Below, in pieces: positions 2,185 to 14,916 of a stretch of 50,787 bases of DNA. The stretch lies in contig PFJA01000286.1 in NCBI GenBank assembly GCA_002782905.1, forward strand, positions 1-50,787, given 5' to 3'. The notes beneath the pieces were generated by a model. The model saw only the letters and a program-made list of their open reading frames with translations. It was not told where the DNA came from and did not search any database. Position 1 is the stretch's first letter; the number at the start of each line of letters is the position of its first letter. This stretch comes from Lysobacterales bacterium CG_4_10_14_3_um_filter_64_11. Lineage in GTDB: Bacteria > Pseudomonadota > Gammaproteobacteria > Xanthomonadales > Xanthomonadaceae. The position numbers and the translations under genes were made by a program.

Positions 2185-3669
2185 TCAATCCAACCAGTGA
2201 TATGGCGCCGGGTCGAAACGGCGCAGGCGATGGCGAAAGACAAAGGTGAAGTCCGGCCATAGCGTGGTGTTGAGGCCGTCACGGGTGCGGTACCAACTGC
2301 TACAGCCGCCGGTATTCCATACCGTGCGTGCCAGTCGTCGTTGCAGTGCGCTGTTGTAGTTGCGCTGCACGGCGGCATCCACCTCCAGCGCCGCGCCCGG
2401 GCGCTGCGCCAGTTGCGCGATGGCGTCGATGACGTAATTGGCCTGCGCTTCGATCATGTACACCATCGAGTTATGGCCCAAAGCGGTGTTCGGCCCAGTC
2501 ATGATGAACAGGTTGGGAAAACCGCTGACCGTGGTGCCCAGATACGCATTGGGGCCGTCGCGCCAGGCACTATCGAGGTCGACGCCGCGGCGCCCGGTGA
2601 CCGGGAATGGCGCGCATGCTTCGGCCGCTTCAAATCCGGTGCAGGCGATCAGCACATCGAGTGGGTGCTGAACCCCATCGCCGGTCACGGCCGCAGTGGT
2701 AGCGATGCGCGTGATCGGTGCGGTGACGAGTTGCACGTTGTCGCGGCACAGTGCCGGATAAAAATCGCTCGCCAACAACACCCGCTTGCAACCGACGCGG
2801 TAATTCGGTGTCAGTTGCGCGCGCAGTTGCCGATTGCGCACTTGCCAGCGCAATTGCAGGCGCGGCAGGATTTCCAACACGCGCAACAGTGCCGGCAGGC
2901 GGGTGAAGGCTACCGCGAACAGTTCATGCCGCCAGTAGTTGAACACCCGGCTGATGCGCTGCGTTGACGGCCAGCGCCGGTACAGCGCCTTGCGCCAATG
3001 CGGTGCCGCCCAGTTGGGTTTGCCGATGATCCAGGCCGGGGTGCGCTGGAACAGCGTTACCTGCGCCGCCTGCCCGACGATGGCCGGTAGCACCTGGATC
3101 GCGCTGGCACCGGTGCCGATCAGGCCGACCCGCTTGCCGGCCAGCGTGATGTCCGCCGGCCACCGTGCGCTGTGAAAGCTGGCGCCGGCAAATTGCGCGA
3201 TTCCCGGAATGTCCGGTAGCTTGGGTCGGCTCAGGCCGCCGGTTGCCAGAATCAGCGAACGCGCGTGAAAGACCTGCGCCGCGTTGGCAACCTCGATTCG
3301 CCAATGCCGCCGCTCCTCATCAAAACGTGCGGCGGTTACCGGGTGATTGAAGCGCATCTGCGCGCGCACGCAAAAACGATCGGCGCACTGGTTGAGGTAC
3401 TTCTCGATTTCCGCTTGCGCCGGATACGCGCGCGACCAGTCGGGGTTGGGCGCAAACGAAAAGCAGTACAGGCTGGACGGGATGTCGCAGGCAGCGCCGG
3501 GATAACGATTGGCCTGCCAGGTTCCGCCGAGGCTCGGTGCCTGCTCCAGCAACACGAAACGCTGCCCGGCCTGGCGCAGGCGAATCGCCATGCACAAGCC
3601 GGCAAAACCGGCGCCGACGATCACGGCATCGTATTCAGGCGGCAACGCAGCGGGATTGGCATCGGTCAT
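2185..3669 (-). CDS. FAD/NADPH-dependent Baeyer-Villiger-type flavin monooxygenase
   Basis: Rossmann motifs GAGFAGL and GTGASA are present. The type I BVMO fingerprint FxGxxxHxxxWP appears as FAGASFHSARWP. Start set at MTDANP (ATG 3669). Confidence 0.85.
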   Translation of the reverse strand: MTDANPAALPPEYDAVIVGAGFAGLCMAIRLRQAGQRFVLLEQAPSLGGTWQANRYPGAACDIPSSLYCFSFAPNPDWSRAYPAQAEIEKYLNQCADRFCVRAQMRFNHPVTAARFDEERRHWRIEVANAAQVFHARSLILATGGLSRPKLPDIPGIAQFAGASFHSARWPADITLAGKRVGLIGTGASAIQVLPAIVGQAAQVTLFQRTPAWIIGKPNWAAPHWRKALYRRWPSTQRISRVFNYWRHELFAVAFTRLPALLRVLEILPRLQLRWQVRNRQLRAQLTPNYRVGCKRVLLASDFYPALCRDNVQLVTAPITRIATTAAVTGDGVQHPLDVLIACTGFEAAEACAPFPVTGRRGVDLDSAWRDGPNAYLGTTVSGFPNLFIMTGPNTALGHNSMVYMIEAQANYVIDAIAQLAQRPGAALEVDAAVQRNYNSALQRRLARTVWNTGGCSSWYRTRDGLNTTLWPDFTFVFRHRLRRFDPAPYHWLD

Positions 3670-3725
3670 CACGGCGCATCGATGGCACGGAGCCGCCAGC
3701 ATAGCGCGTCACTGTGATGCGGCAA

Positions 3726-5213
3726 TCAACGTGCGCCCAGTTGCGCCGGCGTTACCGGCGTTTCCGGCGTCGTCATGATCTGCCGACGCAGCGCGAGTGA
3801 CTGCGCCTCGTCTGACAACTTGGCGCGATCGGAATCCACGCGCAGCCCCAGTGCCGCGTAGCTGCCGTTGAGGCTGGGGAAATGCCGCGATGTGGCGTGT
3901 CTGAGTGCCAGCCGCGAAAACACGTCGCTCTCACTGAGCGCATCGAGGCGGGCGATGAACGCATCGGGATCGACTCGGCCCGCCTCCGGCAGACAACACC
4001 GCGAATACGCAGCGAGCACTTGCTCAAGGCCAAGGCCGCGTTCGCGGTGCAGGGCGATATCCGCCTCCAGCCAGAATGCCGCGCCGCCCCAATAGATGCG
4101 CATCACCGGCCAGCCACCACGCTGACCTGACGCCCGCTGCCGCGGAGCACGGCTGATTTCAGCCAGTGAAACGCCCGCGGCGGCGTTGCGGCCACGGCCA
4201 AAGCCGGCGTCGAGTTGTTCCCAGGCATAGGCTTCGCTGACGATGCCAGCGCGCGCGCGCAGCACATTCTGGTAATAACTGGCCAGGCCCTCGGCCAGCC
4301 AGCGCCCACTGTTGCCCAGATACGGATGAAAGAAGTGGGAGAACTCATGGATTGCGGTCCAGTCGTCACGCAGTTGCGCAACCGTGGCATCGCGGCGCAC
4401 GAACAATTGCACCGCCACCCCGGCGCCGCGCGTGGTTTGGCCCCAGGGCACGGGGCTCTTGCTGCGCGAGCTGATCTCGATCACCAGCACCTGCGCGCTG
4501 CGCACCGGAAACCGCCGGTAAGCGGTGAGCGTTGCACTCGCCACTTCCCGCAGCCATCCGTGCAACGCATCGGCGCGCTGCCGCGAGCGCGCATCGATCA
4601 CCGCGATGCGAAGCTCGCTGCCGTCGCCCGCCGCAACGATGCGTTCATCCACCGCACCGAACACCGCCCACGCAGGCCAATCGCCACCACCTGCTTGCAG
4701 CACGTAGACTCGCCGCGAACGATCGCGTGGCTGCCAGGGCAACGATGCGTGCATGCCCGGCGGCAGGTCCAGCGTCACCGTGCCGGCCTCATCGGCGCGC
4801 CACAGCAAAACGCCGGCGCTGATCATCCAACTGCCACTGGCGGTCTGGATGCCCTCATCACGGCCATTGGAGCGACTCGCGCGCGCAGCCGCAATCCGGT
4901 AATGGATGCAGGCACCCGCCGGCACTGCGCCCGCGATCAGGCGATCGCCGCTGCGCTGCAATGCACCGTCATCGCTGCGGGCGTAGCCGAGCAAAAAATC
5001 AGTGGCGCCTTCCTGCGCACGCAATTGCAACTGCGGGTAATCACGATCGGCGCACGCCGCGACGCGCAACTCGCCAGCGGCCTTGTCGATGGAAACCCGG
5101 TAATCGATCGCGGCACTCGCCGCAGTGGCAAGCAATGCACCGGCAACACCCAGCAACATGCGGGCAGTGCGCCAGATACAGCGCCGGTTTCGCGGTTGGT
5201 ATTGGGCTGACAT
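3726..5213 (-). CDS. exported MA-clan zinc metallopeptidase (M61-like)
   Basis: Signal peptide (MLLGVAGALLATAASAA). HEFSHFFHP...WLAEGLASYY resembles the HExxH...EG.TxYY arrangement of M61 glycyl aminopeptidases. Start set at MSAQYQ (ATG 5213). Confidence 0.7.
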   Translation of the reverse strand: MSAQYQPRNRRCIWRTARMLLGVAGALLATAASAAIDYRVSIDKAAGELRVAACADRDYPQLQLRAQEGATDFLLGYARSDDGALQRSGDRLIAGAVPAGACIHYRIAAARASRSNGRDEGIQTASGSWMISAGVLLWRADEAGTVTLDLPPGMHASLPWQPRDRSRRVYVLQAGGGDWPAWAVFGAVDERIVAAGDGSELRIAVIDARSRQRADALHGWLREVASATLTAYRRFPVRSAQVLVIEISSRSKSPVPWGQTTRGAGVAVQLFVRRDATVAQLRDDWTAIHEFSHFFHPYLGNSGRWLAEGLASYYQNVLRARAGIVSEAYAWEQLDAGFGRGRNAAAGVSLAEISRAPRQRASGQRGGWPVMRIYWGGAAFWLEADIALHRERGLGLEQVLAAYSRCCLPEAGRVDPDAFIARLDALSESDVFSRLALRHATSRHFPSLNGSYAALGLRVDSDRAKLSDEAQSLALRRQIMTTPETPVTPAQLGAR

Positions 5214-5252
5214 GAAAACCTTGATGTGCAACAACGCGCAGCGTGTCATTGT

Positions 5253-7573: not shown

Positions 7574-7585
7574 CCGATTACCGCG
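7566..7585. terminator. 8-bp perfect palindrome spanning the convergent stop codons of uvrD and the dipeptidase gene
   Basis: CGCGGTAA-ccga-TTACCGCG. The TAA of uvrD (7571-7573) and the TAA of the minus-strand gene (7578-7580) each form part of one arm. There is no U-tract. Confidence 0.35.
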
Positions 7586-8732
7586 TCTGCACGGCCGTGA
7601 ACACGCGCAGGAAATTGCCACCGACCAGCTTGGCGACCTCGTCCTCGGCAAGGCCGCGCTGGAATAGGCCAGCCACATAAACCGGCAGCTTGGCATAGCT
7701 GTCGAGCACCGGTTTGTAGTTGGCATCCATGTCGGTACCCAGGCATACGTGATCGATGCCGACGCGATCGATCAGCTCCAGGGTGCGGTCGACAAACCCA
7801 TTCAGATCGCTGATCCCAATGCCGGCCGGCCAGGCCCCGATCACGCCGCCGCCAGCGCTGGCGGTGGCGGTTGCCAGTTCTTGCGAAATGAAACGCGGTG
7901 GCGCACCCGCTGCGTGTTGATGGACATGGGTGTGCGAGGCCATGACCGGGCGGGTGCTGACCGCCAACGCGCCGAACGCAGTGGCCTCGCTGGCGTGGGC
8001 GAGATCGACGATCATGCCGACCCGGTTCATCTCGCGCACGACGGCGGTACCGGCACGAGTGAGGCCGCCATGGCGCGGTGCTTCGGTCATGATGTCGCCC
8101 AGTTCGTTGTGGCGGTAATGCATCAGGGTGATCGAACGCACGCCATCCGCGTACGCTTCGCCCACCCGTTCGGGCTTGCCTTCGAGAAAGTCGCCGCCCT
8201 CGACGGTGAGCAACGCGCCGATCTGGCCTTGCGCTCGCACTGCCGCGATGTCGGCCGGCCGATCGATGCGCTGCACCCACCCGGACCCAACCAACGCATT
8301 GAGGTTGTCGATCTGGCGGCGATAGCTGGCCCACGCTTCGCCCGGTTCGAACGCGCGCGCACTGGTCAAGCCGGTAGCATCGGACAATGCGAGCGTTTGA
8401 AAATCGGCAACGGCAGCGAAGGCGGCGACATCGACGCCACCGGCACGCATATCCGCCAACGTGCGCCGTTCAAAAGTGCCGCGCCACGCATACAGCCGCA
8501 CCATGCCGCGGACATGTTCGGCACCGCGCACAAAGGTGCGGCCCGGATGGGCGTGCGCATCGATGACCGGGTGTGCGGCAAGAAATGCCTGCGCCCGCGC
8601 CAACTCATCGTCGCGGTAGGCAAAGCCGGTCGGTGCGGTGGGTTGCCGCAACAGCCACCAGCCAGCGCTGCCGATTGCGAGCAACACGGTACTGCCACCT
8701 ACCAGCAGGCGGCGGCGGGTCAGCACGGCCAT
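7578..8732 (-). CDS. Tat-exported membrane dipeptidase, peptidase family M19 (renal dipeptidase / dehydropeptidase-like)
   Basis: M19-like blocks VIDAHAHP, ITLMHYRHN, GMIVDLAHASE, GTDMD and NFLRVF. A twin-arginine leader MAVLTRRRLLVGG follows a GGGAGGG RBS (ATG 8732). The longer track ORF would overlap the upstream gene. Confidence 0.85.
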   Translation of the reverse strand: MAVLTRRRLLVGGSTVLLAIGSAGWWLLRQPTAPTGFAYRDDELARAQAFLAAHPVIDAHAHPGRTFVRGAEHVRGMVRLYAWRGTFERRTLADMRAGGVDVAAFAAVADFQTLALSDATGLTSARAFEPGEAWASYRRQIDNLNALVGSGWVQRIDRPADIAAVRAQGQIGALLTVEGGDFLEGKPERVGEAYADGVRSITLMHYRHNELGDIMTEAPRHGGLTRAGTAVVREMNRVGMIVDLAHASEATAFGALAVSTRPVMASHTHVHQHAAGAPPRFISQELATATASAGGGVIGAWPAGIGISDLNGFVDRTLELIDRVGIDHVCLGTDMDANYKPVLDSYAKLPVYVAGLFQRGLAEDEVAKLVGGNFLRVFTAVQTR

Positions 8733-8754
8733 TACCCTCCCAAGGTCAGGTGAT

Positions 8755-9240
8755 TCATGGCGATGTCGGTTGTTCGGGCTCGCCGACAAAGGCGATGGCG
8801 TCGATTTCGATCAAAATCGGTGCCGTGCCGAAATCGACGCCGGGGATGGTGGTGCGTACCGGCAACGGTTGCTGCGTGAAATAGCTTTGATAAACCGCGT
8901 TCATTGCCGCCATATCGGTCGCCGAGCGCAGCAAGACCGTGGTTTTCACCACGTCGGCCAGACCCACGCCTTCGCCCGCCAGTGCCGCCTTGAGGTTGTC
9001 GAGCACCAACCGGGTCTGGCGGTCGATATCACCGCCATGTCGCCATTGGCCAGTGGCCGGATCGCGCGGGATCTGCCCGGACACGAACACCCACGCGCCC
9101 ACCCGCCGCGTTACCGCATACGGGCTGGCAGCGGCCGCGGTGGCGGCTGCGGCCACGCGGTCGTGTGCCGCAACGCAAGCTGGCGTTAGCGCCAGCAACA
9201 GCACCAGCGCGCCGCAACCGGCTGACGCACGATCAACCAT
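8755..9240 (-). CDS. exported RidA/YjgF/UK114-family enamine/imine deaminase
   Basis: RidA fold blocks VFVSGQIP, DIDRQTRLVLDNLKAAL, VVKTTVLL and IEIDAIA. The N-terminus is signal-peptide-like (ALVLLLALTPACVAA). The start ATG overlaps the receptor stop (TGATG at 9238-9242). Confidence 0.8.
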   Translation of the reverse strand: MVDRASAGCGALVLLLALTPACVAAHDRVAAAATAAAASPYAVTRRVGAWVFVSGQIPRDPATGQWRHGGDIDRQTRLVLDNLKAALAGEGVGLADVVKTTVLLRSATDMAAMNAVYQSYFTQQPLPVRTTIPGVDFGTAPILIEIDAIAFVGEPEQPTSP

Positions 9241-11486
9241 CAGAACGTGTGCCACAACTCGATACCGTACGATCGCGGCTCGCCACGGGTGACGAACTGG
9301 TTGCCGAAGAAGTCGCGGCCACGGTTGTCGAGAAACGTTTCCTTGAACACGTTACGGCCCCACAGACTGATCCCGAAATTGCCGGCATCGGTGCTGTAAG
9401 TGAGCCGGGCATTGACCAGGTTGCGGCTGCCGATGCGCTCGTACAGCGGGTCGTTGGTGGCGCCGCTGAAGTAATTGCTGCGGTAGCTGTACTCGCCGAA
9501 GAAGTCGATGCGGCCACCCAGCGCCGCCACCGGTACACCATAATCGATGGTGACTGCGGCGGTGGTGTCCGGCGCCGGCAGATCGTTGCCGGACAAATCC
9601 TGACCGCCGGGGCCGCCGTTCGGGAAGCTGTCGAAGGTGGCATCGACGTAACCGGCATTGGCACCCAGACGCAGGTTTTCGTTGACCTGCAAGCTGATGC
9701 TGCCCTCGATGCCCTGCGACTCCACGCGCGCCGCGTTGCGCAATTGCAACACCGTGGTGCCACCGCCCAGAGCGATGAACTGGAATTGCTGGAAATCGCT
9801 GAACTCGTTGTAGAACGCCGCCAGATCGAAGCGCAGGCGGCGATCGAGCACCAGTCCCTTCAAGCCGGCTTCGTAGCTGTCCACGGTTTCGGTATCGAAA
9901 TCAAAGCCGGTGGCGATCTGCCCGACATTCAGGAAATCGGTGTTCCAGCCGCCGCTCTTGAAGCCGCGCGCGTATTTCGCGTAGACGTTGACATCGTCAT
10001 TGAGTGCGAAGGTGAGCCCGGCGGTCGGGGTGAACTTGTTGTCGGTACGGTCATCGCGGAAGTTGTCGAGCGAGCCGATGCGGAACGCGCCGCTGCGGCT
10101 GCCATCGAGGTTGAACACGATGTCCTTGGTCTCGTGGGTGTAACGGGCACCGAGGTTCAGGGTCAAGCGCTCGCTGATATCGAAATCCAGCGAACCGAAA
10201 CCGGCGAGATTCTCGGTTTCGATGTTGGCGATGGCGGGAACCACGGTGCCGGCGGTCACCCCGAACGCCAGCCCCACCGGCGCGAATGGAAACGGCGAAC
10301 CAGCGGGCAGCGCGACGATGGTGTTCATGTCCTGGCCGATGGTCACCCGGCGATCCGAATCGGCCTGCTCGTTGAGGTAGAACACACCCAGCACGTAGCG
10401 CAGGCGGCGGTCATTGGATGAGGCGATGCGCAACTCCTGCGAGAACTGCTCGAACTTGTCGTTGAAGTTGATGCGGATGATGTCGGCGGCGCTGTAATCG
10501 GTGTCGTTCTGGCGCTGCTGCTTGGTGTTGCGGTAGCCACTGATCGCGGTCAGGGTGTCGCCGTTGTCCATGTCATAGCTCACCTTGACACTGCTGCCAT
10601 ACAAGGTGGCGTTGATGAATGGCGTGGTGTTGAAGTCCACGTTGCGATCGGGCAGGTTGCCGCCGGCTATCGGGCTATCGAAAAACGCGGTGATCGGCTC
10701 GCCGATGATGGTGTTTTCTTCGCTATCCGAGTAGTCGCCGTAGACATCGATGGTGAGCTTGTCGCTGACCAGAAAGCTGAGCTGGCCACGGGTACTGAAG
10801 CGATCCAGATTGTCCAGATCATCGCCATTGAACTGGTTGCGGGTGTAGCCGTCGCGGGTCTCGTAGGAGGCGGCGATCTTGCCCAGCACCGCTTCGCTGA
10901 TCGGGCCGGTGACGCTGCCGTAACCTTCAAATGCATCATTGTTGCCGTACACCGCACGCAACTTGGCATCGAAGAACGGGCTCGGCGCGGCAGTGGTGAC
11001 GTTGACCGCGCCGGACACCGTGTTGCGGCCGAACAAATGCCCCTGCGGGCCGCGCAATATCTCCACCTGTTCGATATCGAACAGAGGCATGTTCAGCGCT
11101 GGCGACTGGCCCAGATAGACGCCATCGAGATACATGCCGGCGCGCGTATCAAAACCGATACTGCGTCCGCCACCACCGACACCGCGAATGGTGATCGAGT
11201 TGAAGCCGGCTTTGACCAACTGGAAGTTTGGCGCCAACTGCTGCAAGTCGAACAGTGTGCGGCCACGCTCTTTCTCCAGCGTTTCGCGATCAATCACAGT
11301 GATCGCAATCGGCACGTCTTCCAGCGCCTGGCTGCGTTTTTGCGCGGTCACGACCACGTCGTCCAGACGCGTGGGGCTGGCAGCACCCGCCTCCTGCTGC
11401 TGCGCCCATACCGCTGGCGCCAGCGCCATCGCCACGGCCAGCGCCAATACCCGTGGTTGCAATTTCCCAGCTTGCCTGTATTGCAT
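9240..11486 (-). CDS. TonB-dependent outer-membrane receptor
   Basis: Signal peptide ends AVWAQQ, followed by a TonB box DDVVVTA and plug/barrel blocks. The C-terminus ...YGIELWHTF ends in an aromatic residue. A strong GGGAGGGAG RBS precedes the ATG at 11486. Confidence 0.9.
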   Translation of the reverse strand: MQYRQAGKLQPRVLALAVAMALAPAVWAQQQEAGAASPTRLDDVVVTAQKRSQALEDVPIAITVIDRETLEKERGRTLFDLQQLAPNFQLVKAGFNSITIRGVGGGGRSIGFDTRAGMYLDGVYLGQSPALNMPLFDIEQVEILRGPQGHLFGRNTVSGAVNVTTAAPSPFFDAKLRAVYGNNDAFEGYGSVTGPISEAVLGKIAASYETRDGYTRNQFNGDDLDNLDRFSTRGQLSFLVSDKLTIDVYGDYSDSEENTIIGEPITAFFDSPIAGGNLPDRNVDFNTTPFINATLYGSSVKVSYDMDNGDTLTAISGYRNTKQQRQNDTDYSAADIIRINFNDKFEQFSQELRIASSNDRRLRYVLGVFYLNEQADSDRRVTIGQDMNTIVALPAGSPFPFAPVGLAFGVTAGTVVPAIANIETENLAGFGSLDFDISERLTLNLGARYTHETKDIVFNLDGSRSGAFRIGSLDNFRDDRTDNKFTPTAGLTFALNDDVNVYAKYARGFKSGGWNTDFLNVGQIATGFDFDTETVDSYEAGLKGLVLDRRLRFDLAAFYNEFSDFQQFQFIALGGGTTVLQLRNAARVESQGIEGSISLQVNENLRLGANAGYVDATFDSFPNGGPGGQDLSGNDLPAPDTTAAVTIDYGVPVAALGGRIDFFGEYSYRSNYFSGATNDPLYERIGSRNLVNARLTYSTDAGNFGISLWGRNVFKETFLDNRGRDFFGNQFVTRGEPRSYGIELWHTF

Positions 11487-11678
11487 GATCTCCCTCCCCA
11501 GGGTGTTTGAGCAACGAATCCAGCACATTGGCTGCACTCATGGTGCCGCAAAGGCCACGACAAGACGTGGCTGCTATCATTCTCTGTGCAGTGGCAAGGC
11601 GTTGTTTTTGCGCGCCCGCCGAACCAAGTCCGCTTGCAGTGTGCCAGTATCGATGCAAACCCTATTGACCCAAGCCCG

Positions 11679-12734
11679 ATGCCATTGACCCCAAGCACCG
11701 CACCGACCCGGGAAACCGCCATCGTGGCGGTGCATCTGGTGCGCTTGGTCACCGAGTACGCAGCGCAGCACGACGTGGACGTGGCACCGCTGCTGGCCGA
11801 GGTGGGTTGGTCGCCAGTGCTGTTGGACGACAGCGAAAACCGGTTGCGTTTCAGCGATTTTGCGACGTTGTGCGAACGCATCGCGCAAGTGCTCGATGAC
11901 CCATTGCTGGGGCTGCACGCGGGCGTGCAGGTGAAGGCCGGACATCTGGGCTCGCTCGGTTTTGTGTTGATCAGTTGCGCGACGGTCGGCGAGGCACTGG
12001 ATCGCTCGCGCCGCTATTCGGGCATGGTGCTCAACGCGTGCAGTAACGAACTGGAGCAACAAGGCGACCTGTGCGTACGCTATTGGCGCAGCCGGTTGCC
12101 CAATCACGAACCGCTGGGACGTCTGCAGGACGAGTTGAACATGGCCGCCTGGATCACGCTGGGCCGCTGGATGACCGGGCGTGCCGACTTGAAGGCAACC
12201 TGGGTCGCGTTTCGGCACCCGTCGCCGCCGCTGCACCAACACGGCGACTATGAGCGCCTCTTCGGCTGCCCGGTTCGTTTTTCCGCACCGGAGACTGCGA
12301 TTGCCATTCCCGCCGCGATGCTCGATTGCGCGTTGCCGCAGGGCAACCCAGCGGTGCGGCGCATGCTCGACGCGCTATGCGAACGCACCTTGCATCGCTA
12401 TGCCAATCACAACGACCCGATCTGGCTGGGTAGCGTCCACAAGGCGATTGTGCAGGCATTCGAGACCGGTGGCCCGGAACTGGGCGCGGTCGCCGCCGCG
12501 GCCGGATTGCGCAACGATGAACTGACCGCATTGCTGACCCGGCGCGGCACCAGCTTCCGTGCGCTGGTGGACACCTTGCGCCAACAACTGGCGTTGAGTT
12601 ACCTCGCCGACCCCAGCCTGGGCCTTGCCGAGATCGCCTATCTGCTCGGCTTTTCCGAACAAAGCGCGTTCCAGCGCGCGTTCAAACGCTGGACCGGCAA
12701 GGCGCCCGGCGCCTATCGCGGCAATGCGCAATGA
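11679..12734 (+). CDS. AraC-family transcriptional regulator, divergent from the receptor operon
   Basis: C-terminal double HTH with the typical ...LGFSEQSAFQRAFKRWTGKAPGAYR. Start set at MPLTPST (ATG 11679). Confidence 0.85.
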   Translation: MPLTPSTAPTRETAIVAVHLVRLVTEYAAQHDVDVAPLLAEVGWSPVLLDDSENRLRFSDFATLCERIAQVLDDPLLGLHAGVQVKAGHLGSLGFVLISCATVGEALDRSRRYSGMVLNACSNELEQQGDLCVRYWRSRLPNHEPLGRLQDELNMAAWITLGRWMTGRADLKATWVAFRHPSPPLHQHGDYERLFGCPVRFSAPETAIAIPAAMLDCALPQGNPAVRRMLDALCERTLHRYANHNDPIWLGSVHKAIVQAFETGGPELGAVAAAAGLRNDELTALLTRRGTSFRALVDTLRQQLALSYLADPSLGLAEIAYLLGFSEQSAFQRAFKRWTGKAPGAYRGNAQ

Positions 12735-12740
12735 GGCCAT

Positions 12741-13304
12741 TTACGGTTCCAATTCCACCAGCATTTCGATTTCCACCGGGATATTGAACGGCAACGACGC
12801 CATGCCCACCGCCGCCCGCGCATGCCGGCCACGTTCGCCGAACACCGCCACCAGCAGATCCGACGCGCCGTTGATCACCTGCGGGTGCTGGCTGAACTCC
12901 GGCGTGGCGTTGACCATGCCGAACACGCGCACTATACGATGTACATTTTTCAGATCGCCCACTTCGGCCTTGAGTGCGGCGAGCAGGCAAACTGCCGTGC
13001 GCCGCGCCGCCCGGTAACCGTCCTCGACGCTGCGCTCGGCGCCGAGCTTGCCCAGCTTGTCCGGCTGCATCTCAGCGCATGGCCCCATGCCGGAAAGAAA
13101 CACCCAATTGCCGCTGCGCACCGCCGGCACATAGTTGGCTACCGGCGGGCTGCGTGCCGGCAGTTCGATACCCAACTCGGCCAACCGCGCCTCGGGATCG
13201 TATGCCGGCGTGTCGGCAACCGGCGGCTGCGCCACACAGGCCACCTGTGCCAGCGCCAGCAGCAACGCCAACAGGCTGAAACGTGCGTGCAAAGTCATGG
13301 TCAT
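12741..13304 (-). CDS. second exported RidA-family protein
   Basis: Signal peptide (FSLLALLLALAQVACVAQ). RidA-like blocks WVFLSGMGP, AARRTAVCLLAALK and VEIEMLVEL. Confidence 0.8.
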   Translation of the reverse strand: MTMTLHARFSLLALLLALAQVACVAQPPVADTPAYDPEARLAELGIELPARSPPVANYVPAVRSGNWVFLSGMGPCAEMQPDKLGKLGAERSVEDGYRAARRTAVCLLAALKAEVGDLKNVHRIVRVFGMVNATPEFSQHPQVINGASDLLVAVFGERGRHARAAVGMASLPFNIPVEIEMLVELEP

Positions 13305-13631: not shown

Positions 13632-13824
13632 TTGAGGCTTGTCTGCGGCAACGAATTGGACGCCGAATTTCCAACAAAGGTACCTGCGACATGCCTTTGG
13701 CTCAAGCACTATCGCCCAAGCACGGGCAACCGCCGCAGGCGCTGGGTGCCAGCGTGCGCCGGCATGGTGATCGTGACTTGCGTGCGCGGTGTACGATGAT
13801 GGCAAAACCCCGGAACCCTTGTGC

Positions 13825-14916
13825 ATGAATCGACGCGAGCTCCTGCGCGCCTCTGGCCTGGCTGCGGTTGCTGCCAGTCTGGCGGCCTGCTCAGCCACAG
13901 ATGGCAACAACCAGGCCGCCAGCGGGTCGCGCCGGCATTGGAAAATGATTACCTCGTGGCCGAAGGACTTCCCCGGCCTGGGCACCGGTGCGGCCACGCT
14001 TGGCGCGCTGATCAGTGAGGCTTCGGCGGGTCGGTTGACGGTGAAGGTGTACGGTGCCGGCGAGCTGGTGCCGGCATTTGAAGTGTTCGATGCGGTCAGC
14101 CGCGGCGTTGCCCAGATGGGTCATAGCGCGGCCTATTACTGGAAAGGAAAGGCCGCCGCAGCGCCGTTTTTCTGCGCGGTGCCATTCGGCCTCAACGCAC
14201 AGGAAATGAATGCCTGGCTGTACGCTGGCGGTGGTCTGGAATTGTGGCGCGAACTGTACGCGCCATTCAATCTGCTGCCGTTTCCGGCCGGCAACACCGG
14301 GGTACAGATGGCTGGCTGGTTCAATCGCGAAATCCGTTCGGTGCGCGACCTGGTCGGCCTGAAGATCCGCATTCCCGGCATCGGTGGCGAGGTGATGGCG
14401 CGGCTCGGCGCCACGCCGGTGAATCTGCCCGGTGCGGAAATCTTTACCGCGATGCAATCGGGGGCGATTGATGCCACCGAATGGGTCGGCCCCTGGAACG
14501 ATCTGGCGTTTGGCCTGCATACCGTCGCCAAGCATTACTACTACCCGGGCTGGCAAGAGCCGGGGCCGACGCTGGAATGCATGATCAACAAGTCCGCCTA
14601 CGAGACGCTGCCGAAGGATCTGCAAGCCGTGGTCAGCGCCTGCTGCGGTGCGGTGAACGCGGCGATGCTGGCCGAGTTCACGGCGCGCAATCAGGACGCG
14701 CTCGACACCCTGATCCGCGAGCATGGCGTCGATGTGCGGCCGTTGCCGCCCGATGTGCTGACGGCATTGCGCCGTGCCAGCGAGCAGACGCTGGAAGCGA
14801 TTGCGGCATCCGACGCCATGGCGCGGCGTTGCCACGATTCGATGCGCGTGTTCCGCGCCAAGGCGCAGGCCTGGCATCGCATCTCGGAACACGCGTTTTA
14901 TCAGGCGCGGGACTGA
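13825..14916 (+). CDS. TRAP-transporter solute-binding protein (DctP-type) with Tat/lipoprotein-like leader
   Basis: MNRRELLRASGLAAVAASLAACS leader. Conserved DctP-family blocks are WPKDFPGLG, AYYW.GK, GLKIRIPG and ATEWVGPWND. No dctQ/dctM membrane partners occur in the window. Confidence 0.85.
   Translation: MNRRELLRASGLAAVAASLAACSATDGNNQAASGSRRHWKMITSWPKDFPGLGTGAATLGALISEASAGRLTVKVYGAGELVPAFEVFDAVSRGVAQMGHSAAYYWKGKAAAAPFFCAVPFGLNAQEMNAWLYAGGGLELWRELYAPFNLLPFPAGNTGVQMAGWFNREIRSVRDLVGLKIRIPGIGGEVMARLGATPVNLPGAEIFTAMQSGAIDATEWVGPWNDLAFGLHTVAKHYYYPGWQEPGPTLECMINKSAYETLPKDLQAVVSACCGAVNAAMLAEFTARNQDALDTLIREHGVDVRPLPPDVLTALRRASEQTLEAIAASDAMARRCHDSMRVFRAKAQAWHRISEHAFYQARD

Follow-up and report, generated by a model that had tools for sequence, protein, structure and literature searches.

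Exported Rid-family proteins next to a predicted periplasmic M19 dipeptidase and a TonB-dependent receptor in Lysobacterales and Alphaproteobacteria

Genes of the locus

We examined a stretch of 50,787 nucleotides (hereafter the window), contig PFJA01000286.1 of assembly GCA_002782905.1 from Lysobacterales bacterium CG_4_10_14_3_um_filter_64_11, and describe here an operon in it that encodes a TonB-dependent receptor, an exported protein of the RidA type and a predicted binuclear-zinc dipeptidase of the M19 family. The assembly comprises 2.9 Mb in 300 contigs with 65% G+C, and the nearest relatives of the genes in the window are found in metagenome-assembled genomes (MAGs) of Lysobacteraceae. 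A first-pass annotation of the window had described three tightly packed minus-strand genes and had proposed that they may serve the salvage of dehydropeptides or D-peptides in the periplasm, with RidA hydrolyzing the enamine that the dipeptidase sets free. The gene layout is as it described: the open reading frames for the receptor (748 amino acids), RidA (161 amino acids) and the dipeptidase (384 amino acids) occupy positions 9240..11486, 8755..9240 and 7578..8732, all on the minus strand. The overlap between the receptor stop codon and the RidA start codon (TGATG) and the gap of 22 nucleotides (nt) between RidA and the dipeptidase, both pointed out before, can be read directly in the sequence. 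The A of the RidA ATG at 9240 is the last base of the receptor stop codon (ttcTGATGgtt), and the dipeptidase ATG at 8732, which is preceded by GGGAGGG, comes 22 nt after the RidA stop codon at 8755-8757. This translational coupling and the tight spacing of the genes were counted in favor of cooperation between the M19 and Rid proteins.

The longest receptor open reading frame spans 9240-11537, and the real start is the ATG at 11486, which is preceded by a strong Shine-Dalgarno sequence, GGGGAGGGAG. The N-terminus consists of a Sec signal peptide, MQYRQAGKLQPRVLALAVAMALAPAVWA, which ends at AVWA/QQQ and is followed by the TonB box DDVVVTA. Matches to the Pfam Plug (63.3 bits) and barrel (146.7 bits) domains and a C-terminal HTF with terminal phenylalanine complete the features of a TonB-dependent receptor. 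There is no N-terminal signalling domain in the receptor, and it falls short of the cut-off of every specific NCBIfam receptor type. Orthologous receptors adjoin the M19 gene in other loci that we compared with the window (L001, L004, L005, L010-L012 and L124).

The dipeptidase matches PF01244 over residues 53-379 (174.5 bits, cut-off 26) and also, with E-values between 1e-17 and 1e-35, the solved structures of Sco3058, GliJ and human DPEP1. Residues E178, H205, H246, H267, R280 and D334/D336 are common to all 15 orthologs that we aligned, which are 59-86% identical. E178 (in VEGGD), H246 (in DLAHAS) and H267 (in ASH) align to motifs of Sco3058 and GliJ, while GTDMDAN (D334/D336), LMH (H205) and PPRFIS (R280) align to GGDYDG, LTH and HPRNIP of Sco3058. 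By this alignment to known M19 enzymes, we take E178 to be the bridging glutamate and H246 and H267 to be the two histidine ligands; D334/D336 and H205 are presumably the catalytic aspartate and histidine, and R280 presumably binds the C-terminal carboxylate of the substrate. The list of metal ligands used for E178, H246 and H267 was taken from a published comparison (PMC9305348). In all, the protein retains four zinc ligands. The first metal motif is D58-A-H60-A-H62-P-G, and thus HxH rather than His-20-x-Asp-22 (HxD), a correspondence based on motif position and not on a structural alignment. HxH is present in 75 of 81 full-length orthologs. Sequence alignment of residues 45-147 to solved structures gave nothing useful, the N-terminal 130 residues do not align, and an hhalign alignment to the genome's own paralog begins only at residue 91. 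That paralog, a second exported M19 protein encoded elsewhere in the genome (C245:2080-3396), is 31% identical to the dipeptidase in the window and has a Sec leader and the canonical T-H-I-D (HxD).

Export was judged for all proteins by conservation of the leader in orthologs, hydropathy and motif reading, and the hydropathy maxima of the leaders are 2.3-2.6, versus 1.5 for cytoplasmic RidA. The N-terminus of the dipeptidase, MAVLTRRRLLVGGSTVLLAIGSAGWWLLR, contains TRRRLL followed by 20 uncharged residues and an arginine. The RR pair is invariant in the alignment of 15 sequences and is present in 65 of 75 orthologs, with KR in most of the others. Since no conserved small-x-small (AxA) site precedes the conserved P-x-P-I-G-F at the start of the domain, the leader is probably an uncleaved anchor of the twin-arginine translocation (Tat) type. 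The twin-arginine leader that had been read in this protein therefore holds with respect to its RR pair, its uncharged h-region and its conservation in orthologs, but it lacks a cleavage site and is more probably an anchor than a signal that is removed.

RidA matches PF01042 at 91.6 bits (cut-off 27.3), and its match to TIGR00004, at 91.1 bits, lies under the cut-off of 106.25. The catalytic arginine is R129 in PVRTT, the equivalent of Arg105, which is invariant in 18 sequences; Y41, G55, N114 and E145 are also kept. The protein begins with a leader of about 25 residues, MVDRASAGCGALVLLLALTPAC, that ends at VAA/HD and includes a 22-residue uncharged stretch followed by T-P-A-C and CVA/A. Its 12-residue Kyte-Doolittle maximum is 2.60, and the corresponding value for the cytoplasmic RidA of the same genome is 1.53. 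All 14 close homologs (14/14; Rhodanobacter, Lysobacter and MAGs) have a hydrophobic extension at the N-terminus, some 30 residues long, which is lacking in cytoplasmic RidAs. Many of the close orthologs have a cysteine in L-P-G-C or L-A-A-C, and more distant relatives in Hyphomonadaceae, which fall in the same clade (clade A, below), have the canonical lipoboxes V-T-A-C, L-T-A-C and L-S-A-C. We therefore read the leader as one of Sec type, possibly a lipoprotein leader. An in-frame GTG at codon 29 would yield a leaderless protein of about 133 residues, but there is no Shine-Dalgarno sequence or other ribosome-binding site before this codon, and a start there cannot account for the conservation of the leader in orthologs. 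The signal peptide previously assigned to RidA thus withstands the check for a downstream start. The genome carries four Rid genes, of which two in the window are exported; the others are a leaderless canonical RidA (on contig C276) and another cytoplasmic Rid (on contig C190). Because a normal cytoplasmic RidA is also encoded, the exported RidA is an extra, specialized paralog. The Rhodanobacter ortholog (L005:8001-8660) is called at 219 amino acids; its C-terminal extension of some 60 residues has no counterpart elsewhere.

The receptor operon is separated by a divergent control region of 192 bp (11487..11678), so designated from its position, from a plus-strand gene at 11679..12734 that encodes a regulator of the AraC family, with matches to Arabinose_bd (PF12625) and HTH_18. 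This divergent regulator had been noted before. Its length, 351 amino acids, equals that of its ortholog in the syntenic locus L001, so the start is most likely at 11679, and the gene is conserved at the divergent position in Lysobacterales loci. No sigma-70 consensus was found in 11487..11678, and a scan for promoters and terminators gave nothing above shuffled background. Beyond the regulator, at 12741..13304 on the minus strand, lies the gene for a second exported Rid-family protein of 187 amino acids. It matches PF14588 (YjgF_endoribonc) at 77.7 bits (cut-off 35), carries the Sec-type leader MTMTLHARFSLLALLLALAQVACVA (followed by QPP) and has a catalytic arginine in HARAA that aligns with Arg105. 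On comparative grounds we assign this protein to the same module as the operon, since PF14588 Rids are among the exported clades beside M19 and its orthologs sit within the M19 operon in Robiginitomaculum.

Association of exported Rid proteins with one M19 clade

The first-pass annotation had made its reading depend on co-occurrence of the genes in related genomes, and we found such co-occurrence in both related and distant genomes and in several gene orders. Using one genome per GTDB species, we collected 368 relatives of the M19 protein and analyzed the best 80 loci. In these 80 best loci, an open reading frame of the RidA type lies within 1 kb of the M19 gene in 23 cases, and any Rid gene lies within 4.5 kb in 27, or in 27 of the 44 loci outside Burkholderiales. 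By group, a Rid gene is found within 4.5 kb in six of seven loci of Sphingomonadales, 10 of 20 of Hyphomonadaceae and their relatives, five of eight of other Alphaproteobacteria, two of four of Lysobacterales and none of 36 of Burkholderiales. Given four Rid genes in 2.9 Mb, as in the window's own genome, chance adjacency would be expected in about 0.4% of loci, and the co-occurrence of Rid and M19 genes is therefore far above chance. A receptor gene is present within 2 kb in 12 of the 80 best loci. With regard to the proposed uptake through a dedicated TonB-dependent receptor, the receptor is a frequent rather than a constant partner of the M19 gene.

Within the order of the window's genome we scanned 301 genomes from 88 genera. 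The M19 clade is present in three of them, and the exported RidA in the window's genome only. In all three an exported Rid gene adjoins M19 and a receptor is present; in the two others the M19 gene is followed by an exported Rid, with the orthologous receptor flanking. A reverse search was based on 37 metagenome loci that encode RidA proteins with the motif RTTIPGVDFG, which marks clade A. An M19 gene lies within 1.5 kb of the clade-A RidA in 22 of these 37 loci, a PF14588 Rid adjoins in 11, and a receptor is present in 18.

The genes are found in at least six orders and orientations across Lysobacterales, Sphingomonadales and Hyphomonadaceae. Two loci (L001 and L002) share the window's synteny. 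On a Lysobacter contig (L004) the genes run receptor-M19-RidA, and a Rhodanobacter contig (L005) carries AraC, receptor, RidA, M19 and amidohydrolase genes. Other arrangements include a membrane protein gene followed by RidA and M19, M19 convergent with RidA, M19 followed by a PF14588 Rid and RidA, and receptor-M19 with a divergent PF14588-RidA pair nearby. The membrane protein is a multi-pass protein of about 185 amino acids with no Pfam match (for example L044:5920-6471, L007:6905-7462 and L009:7327-7893); it is encoded immediately upstream of RidA-M19 or divergently from M19 in 10 alphaproteobacterial loci and is not present in the window's genome.

Every Rid partner of M19 has a leader: those of the RidA type carry a lipobox or AxA, and those of the PF14588 type an RR motif. 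In a phylogenetic tree they form three separate exported clades beside one M19 orthogroup. Clade A comprises proteins of Lysobacterales and Hyphomonadaceae, including RidA of the window, and is set apart from the cytoplasmic RidAs with support of 97/94; clade B, the Sphingomonadales type, and the PF14588 clade are both supported at 100/100. The Arg105 equivalent is invariant across all three exported clades and canonical RidA. Among the Rid partners of M19 the deaminase arginine and glutamate are both invariant, with Arg105, Glu120 and other pocket residues kept. In characterized members of the family, the Arg105 equivalent predicts imine deaminase activity (PMC5619798).

Taken together, comparison of these loci indicates a conserved, patchily distributed cell-envelope module that has probably been moved by horizontal transfer. 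It is very probable that the exported M19 and Rid proteins cooperate in the periplasm. If they formed no functional unit, the genes would be neighbors by chance or, through mis-called starts, would encode cytoplasmic proteins, for which the in-frame GTG in RidA can be cited. We regard this as hardly credible, since that GTG has no Shine-Dalgarno sequence, since co-occurrence so far exceeds chance, and since the leader is open, hydrophobic and alike in orthologs whose mature parts are 35-77% identical and which stand in different gene orders behind different upstream genes.

Proposed pathway and source of the imine

The best explanation that we can offer, to which we assign a probability of roughly 40%, is a periplasmic M19-Rid module in which an enamine/imine arises from dehydropeptide cleavage, a chemistry that we infer. 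In this scheme, the TonB-dependent receptor would carry the substrate, a modified peptide, over the outer membrane. The peptide would be trimmed to a dipeptide with a C-terminal alpha,beta-dehydro residue, such as dehydroalanine or dehydrobutyrine, which the M19 enzyme would cleave in the manner of renal dehydropeptidase-I acting on glycyl-dehydrophenylalanine. The released enamine would tautomerize to a 2-imino acid, and the exported Rids would hydrolyze this to a 2-oxo acid and ammonium before uptake. The Sec-exported RidA, possibly lipid-anchored, and the PF14588 Rid would work in one compartment, the periplasm. AraC would control the operon in Lysobacterales, and a regulator of the TetR type would take its place in the variant found in Hyphomonadaceae. 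That the link between M19 and Rid is the enamine/imine released by the dipeptidase itself is a tentative proposal, which we hold at somewhat less than even odds. The earlier interpretation is in this sense partly supported as a whole: genes, leaders and co-occurrence are observed, and the dehydropeptide-enamine-RidA chemistry stays a conjecture.

A different source of the imine would be oxidation. M19 would then cleave L-Xaa-D-Xaa dipeptides and a separate exported flavin oxidase or dehydrogenase would make the imino acid, which the exported Rids would hydrolyze, as Rid2/DadY does in the cytoplasm for DadA and DauA. Rid2 and Rid3 proteins are known to speed DauA (PMC5619798), and M19-like proteins of the PvdM type, encoded near TonB receptors, are often coupled to Tat-exported flavoproteins resembling D-amino-acid oxidase (PMC9305348). 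A candidate system of this kind exists in Hyphomonas jannaschiana VP2 (contig 9, L163:4122-6672), in which a three-gene operon about 20 kb from the M19 gene encodes, besides an exported Rid lipoprotein, a Tat-signal flavin amine oxidase (PF01593) and a cytochrome c with a signal peptide. These genes resemble a periplasmic system for the dehydrogenation of amines or amino acids that has an imine deaminase of its own, and here the pairing of a Rid with the enzyme producing its imine seems to extend to the periplasm. The operon, in which an exported Rid stands in an imine context, was counted in favor of the dehydropeptide scheme as well. However, there is no oxidase gene in any M19-Rid locus examined. 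The DAO-family flavoproteins of the window's genome all lack a leader and start directly at the motif for flavin adenine dinucleotide, and no homolog of the Tat-exported Hyphomonas amine oxidase was found there, in an assembly that is 94% complete and in which one could be missed. A periplasmic oxidase was accordingly rejected as the imine source in this genome, and we consider the oxidation route improbable. With no exported oxidase found in the window's genome or in the M19-Rid loci examined, the dipeptidase reaction is the simplest source of the imine.

A cytoplasmic flavoprotein of the FMO/Baeyer-Villiger type, encoded in the window at 2185-3702 between an amidohydrolase and an M61-like gene, has no counterpart in the syntenic loci L001 and L002 and was also rejected as a periplasmic oxidase. 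Its two neighbors, an exported amidohydrolase (PF01979) at 833-2128 and an M61-like HExxH protein at 3726-5249, both keep their synteny with the module in those two loci, and may be accessory peptidases. An amidohydrolase directly follows M19 in the Rhodanobacter locus L005, and the TetR-type variant includes DUF2817/M14-like and alpha/beta hydrolase genes. These nearby hydrolases agree with peptide catabolism. They bear also on a role in defense by hydrolysis of the beta-lactam or carbapenem type, in which the M19 enzyme would open a carbapenem-like ring and the Rids would process the pyrroline enamine/imine. Dehydropeptidase-I hydrolyzes carbapenems, the periplasm is the site of such defense and the product is an enamine/imine pair. 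However, the other peptidases and a TonB receptor of the nutrient type point to catabolism and no resistance-gene context was seen, and we judge this role very improbable.

Three further neighboring genes may be mentioned. At 13789-14916 the window encodes a binding protein of the DctP type, from the tripartite ATP-independent periplasmic (TRAP) transporters, whose N-terminus (NRRELLRASGLAAVAASLAAC) combines a twin-arginine leader with a lipobox. DctQM genes do not adjoin it, and it was rejected as a 2-oxo-acid importer of the module, since it co-occurs only in the closest relatives. In some Robiginitomaculum loci without Rids, a PF01070 2-hydroxy-acid dehydrogenase dependent on flavin mononucleotide (FMN) is encoded 8 nt behind M19 (L068:2605-3753), and such a dehydrogenase is also present beside receptor-RidA-PF14588 units without M19 (L132:5028-6197). 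These positions may be due to synteny shared with a sugar-acid pathway. Finally, a class I/II aminotransferase dependent on pyridoxal 5'-phosphate (PLP), with a twin-arginine leader and lipobox (ISRRFLLAGATGMGVAGATAC), is encoded next to a receptor-DUF2817 operon and M19 at a single locus (L081:496-1665).

Several observations weigh against the dehydropeptide scheme. The first metal motif of the dipeptidase has undergone an Asp-to-His change, and the T-P-A-C of RidA in the window is non-canonical compared with the lipobox [LVI][ASTVI][GAS]C. Enamines hydrolyze spontaneously within seconds and the periplasm holds few PLP enzymes, so that the selective benefit of an exported Rid is not obvious. 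The remaining points concern the association itself. All 36 Burkholderiales orthologs of M19 (36/36) keep the leader and ligands and have no Rid nearby, and no signal peptide was found on any Rid paralog examined in four such genomes; the dipeptidase is therefore not strictly dependent on an exported Rid. A Rhodanobacter locus (L012) has a receptor and M19 and no RidA. Conversely, in at least eight of the 37 clade-A loci RidA stands in a different context, without an M19 gene in reach. Of these, five (L131, L132, L135, L137 and L142) are receptor-RidA-PF14588 units near genes of the FMN dehydrogenase, GntR and enolase types, and three (L128, L130 and L139) encode clade-A RidA lipoproteins beside an alpha-L-rhamnosidase and a fusion of aldolase and short-chain dehydrogenase. 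Rid is thus a frequent partner of M19 that is neither obligatory nor exclusive.

Several of these observations favor a reading in which the exported Rids act on an imported compound, or do something other than deaminate (bind ligands, act as holdases or carry out another hydrolysis), and M19 is a mere frequent neighbor in TonB-gated scavenging loci. The receptor-RidA-PF14588 units without M19, the clade-A RidAs of the rhamnosidase/aldolase loci and the Burkholderiales M19 orthologs without a Rid partner would all be accounted for, as would three alphaproteobacterial genomes whose M19 lacks a Rid neighbor and which encode exported Rids elsewhere. Against this reading stand the adjacency of RidA and M19, with gaps of 39-41 nt, in Sphingomonadales loci that have no receptor, the recruitment of three independent Rid lineages to one M19 orthogroup, and the invariance of the deaminase arginine and glutamate. 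We consider it unlikely.

Relation to known M19 and Rid proteins

Renal dehydropeptidase-I (DPEP1) cleaves dehydropeptides, and the Streptomyces M19 enzyme Sco3058 reportedly cleaves L-Xaa-D-Xaa dipeptides. The dipeptidase in the window resembles both in its PF01244 domain, its Glu/His/His ligands, its catalytic aspartate and histidine and its carboxylate-binding arginine, and it matches the structures of these two enzymes with E-values from 1e-26 to 1e-35. However, DPEP1 is held by a glycosylphosphatidylinositol anchor and Sco3058 is cytoplasmic, whereas the protein described here has a twin-arginine leader and, as its first metal motif, HxH in place of HxD.

Rid proteins are regarded as cytoplasmic guards of PLP enzymes against 2-aminoacrylate, and to our knowledge all described members of the family are cytoplasmic. 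The exported proteins share the PF01042 fold family and the pocket residues of the Rid1-3 deaminases (Salmonella RidA; Pseudomonas DadY, PA5083 and PFL_1385). They differ in their Sec, lipoprotein or Tat leaders and in having a peptidase as partner. The principle that a Rid accompanies its imine-generating enzyme has been described in two studies (PMC5619798; PMC9714295).

Periplasmic anchored M19-like proteins have been reported by Sugue et al. (2022) to be near-constantly encoded beside TonB receptors in Alpha-, Beta- and Gammaproteobacteria, and an uncleaved N-terminal anchor was shown experimentally to place one of them, PvdM, on the periplasmic face (PMC9305348). The dipeptidase of the window and the PvdM-type proteins have in common the M19 fold, the N-terminal anchor, the linkage to a TonB receptor and a proposed role with unusual (D-amino-acid) peptides. 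However, PvdM-type homologs are non-hydrolytic and have lost most of the zinc ligands, and a hydrophobic residue stands in place of the bridging glutamate. E178 is kept and invariant in the dipeptidase described here, which is therefore not of the PvdM type. The partners differ as well, being PvdP or Tat-exported FAD oxidases for the PvdM type and exported Rids in the present case. A 2015 survey of the Rid family mentions neither signal peptides or the periplasm nor peptidases or TonB (PMC4433059), and our literature searches on exported or periplasmic Rid proteins or Rid-dipeptidase pairs found nothing relevant. The pair of an exported Rid and a catalytic M19 enzyme is thus absent from the literature that we searched, whereas the PvdM family already provides periplasmic M19-like proteins encoded beside TonB receptors.

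The recurrence of this pairing in several unrelated groups suggests that unusual peptides are broken down outside the cytoplasm by a route that has yet to be described. More speculatively still than the dehydropeptide scheme itself, we propose that three Rid lineages, each having acquired Sec, lipoprotein or Tat leaders, make up a dedicated periplasmic branch of the family, and that this branch and a membrane-anchored HxH M19 'dehydropeptidase' together catabolize dehydro-amino-acid peptides taken up via a TonB receptor. Such peptides could, for instance, be fragments derived from lanthipeptides, cyanopeptides or aged proteins. The repeated joining of conserved exported Rids to one clade of periplasmic zinc dipeptidases indicates a previously unremarked envelope branch of the Rid family, a picture that the exported Rid encoded with the Tat-exported amine oxidase also fits, and it extends the link between M19-like proteins and TonB receptors from the non-hydrolytic PvdM type to M19 proteins that, judged by their residues, are catalytically intact. 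Dehydropeptides offer a concrete and testable class of substrate for bacterial M19 enzymes, few of whose natural substrates are known. If the scheme is correct, it would establish a physiological dehydropeptidase role for bacterial M19 enzymes and a first extracytoplasmic function for Rid proteins, and would give environmental bacteria a means of using modified peptides that are otherwise resistant.

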